64,000 nucleotides of DNA, from assembly GCF_013315695.1 (NCBI RefSeq), contig NZ_CP054353.1, one strand, 5' to 3'. Shown in pieces: positions 57,001 through 63,000 of this stretch. Position numbers: made by a program. The stretch comes from Escherichia coli. GTDB lineage: Bacteria; Pseudomonadota; Gammaproteobacteria; Enterobacterales; Enterobacteriaceae. Position 1 is the stretch's first letter. Each line of letters starts with the position of its first letter.

Positions 57001-60000
57001 TCCGGCAAGAAAATAGCCTTGTTGCGATCCGGTATCTGTTTTACGGACCTTCCACCAGGTGATGATCGCCACCAGCAGCGTAAAACCGACAAAACTCAAG
57101 ATTTGTAACGAATTCATCTCATAGCCCTTATTTATGTTTATGTCCCGGACGCATGAATATAGGGAGAGGTAAAATGCGTCGGGTCAGGCAGTCAGATTCT
57201 TAAAATACAAACATCGTATCCCTGAACGGATTGTTTTCTGTTAAGTTCAGGTTGTGAGCATAATTCGCCGGAGGGATATTAAAATGAATGGAAAATTGCA
57301 AAGTTCGGATGTAAAAAACGAAACTCCGTACAATATTCCCTTATTGATTAACGAAAATGTGATCTCCAGCGGAATTTCTCTGATCTCGCTCTGGCATACC
57401 TACGCCGACGAGCATTACCGGGTGATCTGGCCGCGGGACAAGAAGAAACCGCTTATCGCCAACTCATGGGTTGCGGTGTATACCGTACAAGGATGTGGGA
57501 AAATTATTTTAAAGAATGGCGAACAAATAACTCTGCATGGCAACTGTATTATATTTTTAAAGCCAATGGATATTCACTCTTATCACTGTGAAGGTTTAGT
57601 CTGGGAACAGTACTGGATGGAATTTACCCCCACCAGTATGATGGATATTCCCGTTGGTCAGCAAAGCGTTATTTATAATGGCGAAATTTATAATCAGGAA
57701 CTCACCGAAGTTGCTGAGTTAATAACTTCACCAGAAGCAATAAAAAATAATCTGGCAGTCGCTTTTCTGACGAAAATTATTTATCAGTGGATTTGTCTTA
57801 TGCACGCAGTCGGTAAAAAAGATCCACAACGGCGGCAAATTGAAAAATTAATTGCCACTTTACATGCCAGTCTACAACAACGCTGGAGCGTAGCTGATAT
57901 GGCTGCCACGATCCCCTGTAGCGAGGCCTGGTTGCGTCGTCTGTTTTTACGCTATACCGGCAAGACGCCGAAAGAATATTACCTCGATGCGCGTCTGGAT
58001 CTGGCGCTATCGCTATTAAAGCAACAAGGGAACTCGGTTGGCGAAGTCGCTGATACGCTCAACTTCTTCGACTCCTTTCATTTCAGCAAAGCCTTTAAAA
58101 ATAAATTTGGTTATGCGCCGTCAGCCGTGCTGAAGAATACGGACCAGCACCCCACGGATGCCAGTCCACACAATTAACGTAACTCTGGCCAGTACGCTTT
58201 GTTGGCCTCCAGCAACTCATCCAGAATAGCTTTGGCGACCGAGGCGCTCGGTACCGTTTTCGACAACGTAATCGCCTGCCACAGGTGCTGATATGAACGC
58301 TGTTCCCAGGCGTCCACGACCAGTTTTTCCACCGCCACTTGCTGACTCATTAACCCTTTCTGAAACTGCGGGATATCGCCGACCACCAGTGGTTCTGGTC
58401 CGTTGTGCCCGACCAGACACGGGATTTCGACCATCGCTTCATCATCAAAGTTATGGATTGCCCCGTTGTTAGGCACAATCAGCAACATCCGCTCCTGAGT
58501 GTTGAAGGCAATCGCCGCCGCAAGATCGACGATGTATGACGCATGTTCGTCAATTTCCAGCTTGCCCGCCGCTGAATTTCCTGCCGCCGTAATGGCGCGG
58601 CAAGCATCGAAAACCTGTTTCTCGCGATGCTCCATCACCTCATTCGCGCGGGTATGTTCAGGGTTGGAATGCTGAACGACATAATCCGGGAAGAGATAAT
58701 ATTTCAGATAGGTGTTCGGCAATGTATCCGGGTCCAGTGCCTGGACATCCCGCGCTTTTGCATAGGTGTCGTTCCAGCTCGCTTCAGTATGTGTATCTTG
58801 CTGCGGTGGAACATAACCGTGCTTAGAGACATATTGCCGCAGCTGGGGCATCAGGTCGTTGCCCTGCAAATCTTCAATTGATGTCCACCAGCCAAAGTGG
58901 TTCAGGCCGTAGTAGCGCACGCGCATCTGTTTGCGATCTTGCAGCCCAACAATTTGCGCCATCCGGCTTTCAATACCGATTGGCATGTCACAGATGTTGA
59001 GGATTTTCGCATTCGGGCGCAGACGACGCGTGGCTTCTGCGACAATGGCTGCCGGGTTGGAGTAGTTGAGCATCCAGGCATTTGGTGAATATTTTTCCAT
59101 ATAATCCACCAGTTCCAGGACGCCGCCAATGGAACGCATGCCGTACGCTATTCCGCCGGGTCCGCATGTTTCCTGACCAACAACGCCGTGGCGCAGCGGG
59201 ATTTTTTCATCCAGTTCGCGCATCGGGTATTTGCCGACGCGGATGTGCGCCATGACAAAATCAACGTCGCTGAATGCCACTTCAGGATCGGTGGTGTAAC
59301 TAAACGCAATGTCCGGCGCTTTTTCTTTAAGGATGACTTTACAGGCTTCGGCAATCACTTCCTGCCGCGCACCATCGTTATCATAAAATTTCAGTGCACG
59401 AAGCGGGAAACGGTCCTGATTCGCCAGGAGCATCAACACGATGCCTGGCGTAAAGGTGCTTCCACCGCCTGCGACAACCACTGAGAATTTGGTCATTATA
59501 CTGCCTCCGTAATGGCAACATTTTCTGCTGATTGATGAGAATTAATTAAGCTATCGAGCTGTTCACGCAGCTGGGATACATGCAAACCAATGATCACCTG
59601 AATGGCATCGCCACTACGGAAGACGCCGTGCGCTCCCAGCTTTTTAAAGACTTCGTCATCCAGCGTTTGTGACATGTCATGCAGTGCAATACGTAAACGC
59701 GTCGCGCAATTGTTGATGCTGGAGATATTGCCGACCCCGCCCAGGGCTTGCAGGATACCGGCAGCCTGATCCAGCTCTTTTTTTGGCTCTGCCGCGGTGG
59801 TTTGGCCTCGCGAGGCTTTATATTCGGCTTTTGAGTAGAGTTTCACTTCCGCATCTTCACGTCCCGGCGTGCACATGTTGAATTGCAGAATCAGGGTGCG
59901 GAAAACCACGAAGTACAGCAGGGTAAAGCACAACCCAATGGCGATTTGGGTCAGCATCATATCCGCGTGGTTGCTGAACATCGGGATCCAGTTTTGCGGT

Positions 60001-63000
60001 AAAACCTGGTCAATCAGACCTCCGCCCATGTTGCCCACCACACCAAAGAGGTACATCACGGTCGACATTGAGGCCGCCAGCACGGCGTGTACCGCAAACA
60101 GCAACGGTGAAATGAACAGGAAGGTAAATTCCAGCGGTTCGGTAATTCCCACCAGCATGGCGGTTAAGGTTGCAGGGATCAGCAAGCCCGCCACTTTTAC
60201 CCGATTTTCCGGTGCAGCAGTGAAGTACATTGCTAAAGAAATGCCCACGGCACCAAAGATTTTTGAGTTACCGTGCAGGGCAAAACCGCCTTCCGGGAAC
60301 AACGATTTCAGCGGCTCGGCGCTCAAACTGAACTCTTGCAGATGCTGCGCCCAGTACATCTGAATGCCGCCTTCAACAGCTGCCGGACCAAAGATAAACG
60401 GTCCGTAGATGAAGTGGTGTAAACCGGTTGGGATCAGAATACGTTCGAGGAAGGTGTAAACCCAGACCCCAAGCGCACCCGCCGAACGCAGGAACGCTTG
60501 CAGAGATTCAATCCCCATTTGTACTTTTGGCCAGCCGAGCAACGTCAGCCAGGCGCAGGGGATCATCACCAGGAAGGCGATAATCACCACATAAGACGTC
60601 CCCTGGAAAATGCCGAGAAACACCGGCAGTTTTTTATCGAACAGACGGTTATGCAGCGCCGTCACAATGCCGGAAATGATAATTGCGCCGATAATGCTGG
60701 TATCGAGGGTTTTAATCCCGGCCATCATTGTCAGACCGCTACCTGCCACCGCGTCCTGAGTGAAATCGACGCCGAAGTAGCTTCCCCAGGTCATTCCCAT
60801 CGCGTTGATGAAATAGTTCCAGGTCAGGAAACTCACCATCACCGCCAGACAAGCTCGCCCCTGCGCTTGCTTAGCAAGGCCAATGGGTAAACCGACAGCA
60901 AAAATCAGCGGCATATTACGGAATACCGTCCAACCGCCCTCTTCAATAATATGTACGATTTGCGCGAATAAACTGTTCGGATCGGTCAGTGATTCCCCGA
61001 CAAACATCGGGTTTTGCAGCAAGATGGCAAGACCCACCACAATCCCGGCGAAGGGAAACAGCAGCACTGGCGTGAACATCGCGCCGCCAAAGCGTTGAAT
61101 TTGACTGAGCATTTCCACATCCTCTTTTCTCAATTCTGTAAGTAGGAAGCCTGATTGGTTATGCGGCAGGCCTGGAGCGAGGATAGGAAGATGCGATCGG
61201 CAGAACATGACGACCCAATGGGATTCGTGATCGCTTTCATGCTTTTCGTTGGGCGGTAGAGATCTACGTTTTCGCAAAAAAGTAGACATCTGTGAGCACT
61301 GGTACACAGCAACGAACACATCTTTAAAAAAAAGATGTTTTTTCAATCGATTAAGCAGAACTTGTGGGCGCATTACCCGGGCTTGCAGGCAAAAAAGAGA
61401 TCTAGAGATGATCTACAAAAGCATTGCGGAGCGGTTAAGAATTCGACTTAACTCCGCGGATTTCACGCTAAACAGCCTTCTTCCCGGTGAAAAAAAGCTG
61501 GCGGAAGAGTTTGCGGTATCGCGGATGACCATCCGTAAAGACATTGACCTGCTGGTAGCGTGGGGGCTGGTGGTCCGCCGCCACGGTAGCGGCACTTACC
61601 TGGTGCGCAAAGATGTACTGCATCAAACCGCCAGCCTGACCGGGCTGGTGGAGGTGTTAAAACGCCAGGGAAAAACGGTCACCAGCCAGGTGTAATGCCA
61701 GTCAGTTAAGCAACTGACTGGCTCTTTTTCGGGGCTGTGGGGTATTTCCAGGGCCTCTCCTTTACCACTCTCGGGAAGGCCCTTTCCCTTCTTGTCGGTA
61801 ATTTCACAAGTTGTCCCATACTTGCAAGATCGCGCATCAGCTCCGGTATACGTCCCGGTGAAGCGCCCTGCAATGTCATCAGCATTCTCATCACCATTCC
61901 GCATGATTCTGAGAAACTCAGTTGATTCGGCCAGTAACCTTTCAGATGTTCCGCCATTTTAATCATCTGATATCTCACCAGATTATAAGCCAGTAAGACA
62001 CCCCACAGCTCTTGCTCCACAAGCTCCGGTTTTTTACTTCTCAGCGTCAGCCTGCTCAGTTGCATCGTCTGTTTTATCTCCCTGTATCCCAGTTCGATTT
62101 CCCAGCGATGACTGTACAGATCCGCCATTTCTCCTCCGGGGAAGCGCATGGCGTCCGTCATCGACGTCAGCAGATGGCAGACTTTTCCTTTGCGCGTCAC
62201 GGTCAGCAGGCGGGCTGTCACTTCATTTCCCAGTCCCGGCCACTTTTTTCGTGCCTGCGGGCTGGTTTTCAGCTTCACCAGATGATCGCCTTTACCCAGT
62301 TTTCTGATCTCTTCATATTGCGCTCCCTTTCTGAGAGGTATCATCCAGTGGCGGTGTTCTCCCGCCAGGCTCCAGGCATTTAACAGTCCCAGTGAGTAAT
62401 AACCTTTATCCATTAACGTCAGAGTGTTATCGCCGGTTTGTTCTATAAGTTGCTCAGCAAGCTCATTTTCGCTGTTCTTCATCGTGCCGAAGGCTGCAGC
62501 CGTCAGCAGATGGCTGGTCAGTTCCATCTGGCAGACCATTTTGACCTGCGGGTAGAGCGCCGGGTTCCCGGCATGTGTCTGGCGGGGGAAGGCTGCATCG
62601 TTCTCTGGTGTATCCGGTGTGCGCCAGAACACACCATCGATGGCCAGCAGGGTCAGGCCGCACCAGTGCGGATGCGGCGTGGCGTTATGCCAGAGCTGCG
62701 CTGTTTTCGTGAACACGCGGCGGACAGCCTCACTTCCCAGGCGCTGGCGGGCCTGAATAACGGCACTGGGGGCAACGAAGGGGCGATTGCCCGGCAGCAT
62801 GATGTCCAGGCGATTCACAATCTGGTGAAGAGGTTCTTTACGCTCAAGCGCCATGCCAACAATACACCAGACCATCATTTCGAGGGGAAGACGGCGCTTG
62901 CGTAGCGTTACAGTACCTGATTCGGCAAGGCAACGAGAGATGAGTTCGGGGTCGAGGTAATCCCCCAGAGAAGTCAGTGGGTTACGCAGAGAATCGTAAC

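Follow-up and report, generated by a model that had tools for sequence, protein, structure and literature searches.

An uninterrupted operon for a predicted alpha-glucoside phosphotransferase system in Escherichia coli, degenerate in K-12 and accompanied here by an IS4-truncated regulator gene

The closest described relatives of the glv locus of Escherichia coli are the agl genes of Klebsiella pneumoniae and the glv genes of Bacillus subtilis. In K. pneumoniae, the gene of AglA, an EIICB permease of the phosphotransferase system (PTS), is followed by that of AglB, a 6-phospho-alpha-glucosidase of family GH4 (PDB 6DUX/6DVV). In B. subtilis, the corresponding proteins are GlvC/MalP, also an EIICB, and GlvA (PDB 1U8X), encoded in the order glvA-glvR-glvC with an RpiR-type activator. 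Growth on alpha-glucosides has been demonstrated for AglA/AglB and GlvC/GlvA in E. coli, where the permeases AglA and GlvC use the host EIIA-Glc (Crr), and the truncated K-12 homologs of aglA and aglB were called "cryptic or nonfunctional" in the same work (PMC5309279). Here, we analyzed the corresponding locus in a 64,000-nucleotide stretch of E. coli DNA (NCBI RefSeq assembly GCF_013315695.1, contig NZ_CP054353.1; hereafter, the window), in which a GH4 gene and a fused EIICB gene are both uninterrupted. The order of the two genes is the same as in K. pneumoniae, from whose agl system the locus differs in that the E. coli module lies between yidL and yidE, that its regulator gene is destroyed by the insertion sequence IS4, and that the E. 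coli proteins are known from sequence alone. It differs from B. subtilis glv in the EIICB-GH4 order and in the divergent GntR/HutC-family regulator. We consider the locus to be, very probably, a three-gene agl/glv-type alpha-glucoside phosphotransferase module with both structural genes intact, a state that is a common, already annotated polymorphism of the species.

The identity of the GH4 protein was examined by domain searches and by comparison with solved structures. The 440-residue protein matched both Pfam families of GH4, with the N-terminal (Rossmann) domain PF02056 at residues 6-184 (223.6 bits) and the C-terminal domain PF11975 at residues 195-415 (190.1 bits), and it aligned without gaps to K. 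pneumoniae AglB (PDB 6DUX) with 393 identical residues out of 439 (89.5%, 917 bits) and to B. subtilis GlvA with 73% identity (750 bits). The best match to a 6-phospho-beta-glucosidase was far lower (1S6Y, 212 bits), and 1UP6 was likewise a weaker match. In GlvA, the functional set is formed by a GxGS motif for NAD+ and a Cys-Asp-Met-Pro signature, with C171 and H202 as the Mn2+ ligands and D172 and Y265 as the catalytic residues, accompanied by E111, N149, and R95. The counterparts in the window protein, GGGS at 10-13, C169-D170-M171-P172, H200, Y263, E109, N147, and R93, were all identical in the ungapped alignment, and the catalytic residues were also all kept relative to AglB. No substitution was private to the window protein, which carried the consensus residue at each of the nine positions found to be variable in a set of six E. 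coli alleles. The identical protein in RefSeq is named "6-phospho-alpha-glucosidase" (Table 1). Taken together, these data supported the assignment of the protein as a 6-phospho-alpha-glucosidase, orthologous to the products of K. pneumoniae aglB and B. subtilis glvA.

The 538-residue permease was assigned in the same manner. It scored 959.2 bits against the alpha-glucoside IIBC model TIGR02005 (cutoff 607.3), residues 2-523 covering profile positions 1-524, and only 45 bits against the beta-glucoside model TIGR01995 (cutoff 614.7). Its Pfam matches were limited to PF02378 (residues 10-346) and PF00367 (residues 453-482), with no EIIA domain, and it was homologous along its full length to PtsG structures. 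Members of the glucose superfamily carry a phosphorylatable Cys in the C(I/A)TRLR motif of EIIB and the GITE and HH motifs in EIIC. The window protein has C469 in CATRLR, GITEP at 322-326, and GLHH at 230-233. These results supported the assignment of the protein, listed in RefSeq as "PTS sugar transporter subunit IIB", as an alpha-glucoside-type EIICB orthologous to K. pneumoniae AglA and B. subtilis GlvC/MalP. The nearest orthologs measured were 72-80% identical to it (Enterobacter, Erwinia, Pantoea, and Citrobacter). Like AglA, it combines EIIC and EIIB in one chain that lacks EIIA, and it would therefore draw on the EIIA-Glc of the host, a dependence reported for AglA in E. coli (PMC5309279).

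The reading frames of the two genes were free of internal stop codons and frameshifts, as confirmed by alignment. A preliminary description of the window had proposed two uninterrupted open reading frames (ORFs) of 440 and 538 residues, encoding a GH4 phospho-alpha-glucosidase and a fused alpha-glucoside EIICB; their coordinates and sizes agreed exactly with the ORF list and with RefSeq, and both family assignments held against profile hidden Markov models (HMMs), identity to structures, and motifs. A longer reading of the permease gene is available (59496..61373, minus strand, 625 residues), and this was set aside in favor of the start at 61112, which gives 538 residues. The latter start is preceded 7 nt upstream by a ribosome-binding site, AAGAGGA, the TIGR02005 alignment opens at residue 2 of the resulting protein, and it matches the RefSeq annotation of strain AF3, which is 100% identical to the window over 58000-61700. 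The stop codon of the EIICB gene and the start codon of the GH4 gene overlap as TAATG, an arrangement typical of translationally coupled pairs, suggesting that the two genes are coupled in this manner. The coordinates of all features are collected in Table 1. At the other end of the GH4 gene, the convergent yidL gene (plus strand) overlaps it by 4 bp at the stop codons (58174-58177), as it does in K-12, leaving no space for an intergenic terminator.

Table 1. Features of the glv region in the window, with strand and the basis of each assignment
Feature	Position	Strand	Size, content, and basis
GH4 gene	58174..59496	-	440 aa; ORF list; identical genome: WP_000160112.1
508-bp segment within the GH4 gene, deleted in K-12 and retained in the window	58396..58903	-	MG1655 alignment
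Fused EIICB gene	59496..61112	-	538 aa, EIIA domain absent; WP_000952127.1 in RefSeq
EIICB codon 369, CAG (Gln) in the window, TAG (stop) in K-12	60006..60008	-	alignment
Divergent control region, EIICB/yidP	61113..61407	.	sequence, repeats, 12-strain alignment
yidP' (5' 95 codons, GntR/HutC-family regulator)	61408..61695	+	Pfam GntR, K-12 YidP comparison
IS4, 1426 bp	61693..63118	-	ORF, terminal inverted repeats, annotation in identical genome
kup-ravA intergenic region and 5' part of ravA	63119..64000	+	flank of a different IS4 insertion site

We next compare the locus with its K-12 counterpart, glvC-glvB-glvG (b3683, b3682, and b4556), which shares the neighbours yidL, yidP, and yidE and about 99% nucleotide identity. 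In the annotation of MG1655, glvG is a pseudogene of 815 bp, and glvB (486 bp) and glvC (1107 bp) are separate genes. A base-by-base comparison over 3.3 kb revealed 28 substitutions and a single gap of 508 bp in K-12, which falls inside the GH4 gene (glvG). Both endpoints of this deletion fall within an 8-bp direct repeat, AGTGGTTC, suggesting that it arose by slippage or microhomology-mediated deletion. The separation of glvC from glvB is due to one C-to-T change on the coding strand at position 60008, which converts codon 369 from CAG to TAG. K-12 thus shows a degenerate state, produced by the 508-bp deletion and one nonsense codon. The two strains are opposite on all three points: K-12 has the deletion and the TAG codon but an intact yidP, whereas in the window both lesions are lacking and yidP is interrupted. 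The state of K-12 that the preliminary description had given, a glvG pseudogene with glvB and glvC separate, was therefore correct; the alignments with K-12 glvGBC and with B. subtilis GlvA for which it had called located the K-12 lesions and gave the ungapped 73% match, and K-12 does not carry the intact arrangement.

The distribution of the locus was examined in 5426 complete E. coli genomes. Of these, 4265 matched the 3.7-kb locus over at least 80% of its length, and the 508-bp GH4 segment was found in 1652 (1649 at ≥80% coverage), or about 30%, with O157:H7 and O145 strains among the carriers of the full-length hydrolase gene. The K-12-type deletion, obtained by subtraction, is carried by about 2600 genomes (~48%), and its junction was identical in all five deletion strains sampled. 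In about 1150 genomes, the module is absent and only the 3' end of yidL matched. Searches with exact 61-mers found the TAG allele of K-12 in 348 genomes and the CAG allele of the window in 3222. Both ORFs were intact in all five of the sampled genomes that carry the full-length GH4 segment. These counts show that the fused EIICB is the norm of the species and that the intact operon is a common polymorphism, already annotated in RefSeq; the only strain-specific features of the window are the IS4 knockout of the regulator gene and the hybrid IS4 junction described below. In the literature searched for E. coli-wide polymorphism of this locus or for phenotypes of intact strains, nothing specific was found; a 6-phospho-alpha-glucosidase has been listed among the accessory genes enriched in some isolates (PMC6968650).

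In a genome lacking the module, yidL adjoins yidE and the last ~100 bp of yidP persist. This residual yidP end indicates that the module-less state is a deletion running from within yidL to within yidP, and not a simple ancestral absence. Strain AR_451 (9145-9260 of the locus examined) carries such a 3' end of ~100 bp, about 92% identical to K-12, beside a shortened yidL. A different rearrangement was seen in strain 99-3165 (2002-3782 of the locus examined), in which an IS200/IS605 element with an InsQ/TnpB gene and a frameshifted tnpA has taken the place of yidI, yidJ, yidK, and most of yidL, leaving only a 75-bp yidL remnant beside an intact GH4 gene.

To gauge selection on the structural genes, the window was compared with five diverse strains that carry the intact operon. 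The EIICB protein sequence was identical in all six; pairs of strains differed by 17-29 synonymous and 0 non-synonymous changes, with the exception of one close pair that differed by a single synonymous change. The ratio of non-synonymous to synonymous divergence (dN/dS) of the GH4 gene was 0.03-0.12 in the same sample. These values point to strong purifying selection on both structural genes, a pattern at odds with a relic in decay. EIICB remains full length (2189-3805 in their loci) in five strains that carry the GH4 deletion. Amino acid changes in EIICB were confined to the GH4-deletion strains and K-12 (P238Q, and P243L with R516H). This pattern is consistent with a relaxed constraint on EIICB after loss of the hydrolase in a sample that is small and composed of phylogenetically non-independent strains; alternatively, the permease could have a role independent of the hydrolase.

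The regulator gene yidP is transcribed divergently from the EIICB-GH4 operon and is interrupted by IS4 after codon 95, the truncated frame ending at a TAA contributed by the IS4 terminus; the K-12 YidP protein has 238 residues. The remaining fragment contains the GntR winged-helix domain (PF00392, 72 bits, residues 2-63) and lacks the UTRA effector-binding and dimerisation domain, and it is annotated as a partial pseudogene in the identical genome. The exact yidP::IS4 junction was found in 2 of the 5426 genomes, those of AF3 and MSB1_4I, both human-derived. The truncation of yidP by IS4 had been noted in the preliminary description; our analysis bears this out and adds that yidP does not resume on the right side of IS4, its 3' part being absent from the window.

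A divergent GntR+UTRA gene also stands beside an EIICB-then-GH4 pair in four other genera, the identities to YidP and to the window EIICB being 77% and 80% in Enterobacter hormaechei, 76% and 72% in Citrobacter rodentium, 69% and 76% in Erwinia tasmaniensis, and 64% and 75% in Pantoea ananatis. The genes surrounding the module are unrelated in Erwinia and Pantoea. Within E. coli, yidP and the EIICB and GH4 genes have been deleted together. The recurrence of the module in four genera and the co-deletion of its three genes are good evidence that YidP is a dedicated regulator of the operon. In C. rodentium (1641-3123 of the locus examined), two GntR+UTRA genes lie in tandem, and the copy distal to the operon is the closer one to YidP (76% vs. 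57%). HutC-type GntR+UTRA regulators, such as TreR and NagR, are mostly repressors released by a sugar phosphate, so that derepression would be the likeliest effect of the IS4 insertion. We give about an even chance to the view that loss of yidP derepresses the operon and leaves it constitutively expressed, subject to catabolite control.

The control region between the divergent genes was examined in 12 strains. The 150 bp nearest the EIICB start were almost invariant, against a synonymous divergence of 4-7% in the flanking genes, and the polymorphisms were clustered at 61268-61380 around GATCTA(C/G)-type repeats and palindromes. These repeats and palindromes are candidate operators. The differences between the window and K-12 at 61276, 61288, 61300, and 61312 are spaced by exactly 12 bp, which may be due to chance. 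An RNA element in the 5' leader was considered and dropped, because no Rfam match was obtained at E<=1 over 57000-64000 and the fold of the leader was unremarkable against shuffled sequences (z = -1.05).

The IS4 copy itself is bounded by imperfect terminal inverted repeats of 18 bp (TAATGCC...GGCATTA) and encodes its transposase on the minus strand at 61706..63052; it is annotated in the identical genome as "IS4-like element IS4 family transposase". Its left flank in the window is CACCAGCCAGGTG and its right flank CCCCCCTTTGAG; the two are mismatched and do not form the direct target duplication of 11-13 bp expected of a simple insertion. In strain AF3, CACCAGCCAGGTG is duplicated around the IS4 in yidP and CCCCCCTTTGAG around a second IS4 located between kup and ravA. 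The 881 bp that follow IS4 on its right side in the window were identical at all 881 positions to the ravA side of this second copy and had no match in the yidP region of K-12. Strain AF3 has its two IS4 copies in opposite orientation about 72 kb apart, and this arrangement holds for the two genomes closest to the window (compare 9694-11119 in retrieved locus L002 and 2502-3927 in L014). The junction of yidP', IS4, and ravA seen in the window was present in none of the complete E. coli genomes. The mismatched target duplications imply that the window IS4 is either a recombinant between two insertions, formed by an IS4-IS4 inversion, or an assembly misjoin; inversion between the two copies would be the simplest reading. 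On the K-12 map, the inverted segment of ~72 kb would presumably include the dnaA-oriC region. Neither an inversion nor a misjoin touches the two structural genes.

On the basis of the characterised orthologs, the system would work as follows. Phosphoenolpyruvate, EI, HPr, and the host EIIA-Glc (Crr) would phosphorylate EIIB at Cys469, and EIIC would import an alpha-glucoside with phosphorylation on O6; candidate substrates are sucrose isomers such as palatinose or turanose, isomaltose, maltitol, and methyl-alpha-glucoside. The GH4 enzyme, dependent on NAD+ and Mn2+, would then convert the 6-phospho-alpha-glucoside to glucose-6-phosphate and the aglycone. With the HutC-type YidP knocked out by IS4, the operon would most likely be constitutive under catabolite control. 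For both genes, these functions are inferred from the sequence and from purifying selection.

Several observations weigh against this reading. In the NCBIfam scan of the GH4 protein, no enzyme-specific model reached its cutoff (179 against 486 for the alpha-galactosidase model PRK15076, and 69 against 650 for the alpha-glucosidase model AglA), so that the enzyme assignment rests on the identity to solved proteins and on the motifs. A scan for sigma-70 consensus promoters between 57900 and 61700 returned no site in these 3.8 kb, where about 3 were expected from shuffled sequences, suggesting that the promoter is weak or activator-dependent. Deletion has removed the enzyme from about 70% of E. 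coli genomes, which indicates that the system is dispensable. Furthermore, identification schemes usually record E. coli as negative for methyl-alpha-glucoside and palatinose, as would fit a silent operon. The promoter scan, the repeated loss of the locus, these negative scores, and the term "cryptic or nonfunctional" applied to the K-12 homologs (PMC5309279) would all agree with intact genes in an operon that is silent like E. coli bgl and chb and ordinarily confers no alpha-glucoside phenotype. We regard such silence as possible but doubtful, because the absence of non-synonymous changes in EIICB against 17-29 synonymous ones, together with the low dN/dS of the GH4 gene, needs regular expression and use in nature, and the probable repressor is destroyed in the window strain. 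The cryptic bgl and chb/cel operons, which are activated by insertion sequences or regulator mutations, resemble the locus in being dispensable PTS glycoside operons that are often inactive, and here an insertion sequence lies in the regulator gene; in bgl, it lies in a silencer upstream of the promoter, whereas in the window it lies within the regulator coding sequence. This likeness is offered as a lead only. It is a tentative idea, to which we give somewhat less credence than to silence of the operon, that YidP normally silences or tightly represses the operon and that yidP::IS4 activates constitutive alpha-glucoside use in the bloodstream-isolate lineage of AF3, MSB1_4I, and the window strain. 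The opposite role for YidP, that of a required activator whose loss leaves the operon uninducible as a third route of inactivation, is unlikely: the weakness of the promoter signals suggests dependence on an activator, E. coli has been losing the locus by several independent routes, and the junction is rare and recent (2/5426 genomes), but characterised regulators of the HutC subfamily are overwhelmingly repressors and PTS sugar operons are more usually activated by CRP.

Two further readings concern the identity of the genes and the integrity of the sequence, and we give hardly any weight to either. The original K-12 annotation described the locus as a beta-glucoside system, with an "arbutin-specific EII" and a "6-phospho-beta-glucosidase". 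Apart from these historical gene names, the only point in its favor is that GH4 also includes 6-phospho-beta-glucosidases, such as the weaker matches 1S6Y and 1UP6; the excess of the AglB score over that of the best beta-enzyme, the presence of the CDMP motif of alpha-enzymes, and the opposite outcomes for TIGR02005 and TIGR01995 effectively refute it. That the intact ORFs are an artefact of assembly or consensus calling is highly improbable as well. The mismatched IS4 flanks at the right edge, found in no complete genome, would allow a misjoin at a repeat, but two independent complete genomes match the window with 100% identity from 58000 to 61700, about 1650 genomes have the full-length GH4 segment, and both ORFs were intact in each of the five sampled.

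The observation is correct but ordinary, and it leaves the understanding of the mechanism of this well-understood family unchanged. Its bearing is on the species: the picture of "glvC, glvB, glvG" taken from K-12 is that of a doubly damaged state, a correction for those who use K-12 as a reference. Strains would be predicted to differ in their use of isomaltose and sucrose isomers; these sugars now occur widely, both as food sweeteners and in industrial glucose feedstock. The intact E. coli genes would also offer a native alternative to the Klebsiella and Bacillus genes used for engineering alpha-glucoside use. If YidP does silence the operon, yidP::IS4 would be a case of insertion sequence-mediated activation of a cryptic sugar operon, for example for palatinose or isomaltose, comparable to those of bgl and chb.

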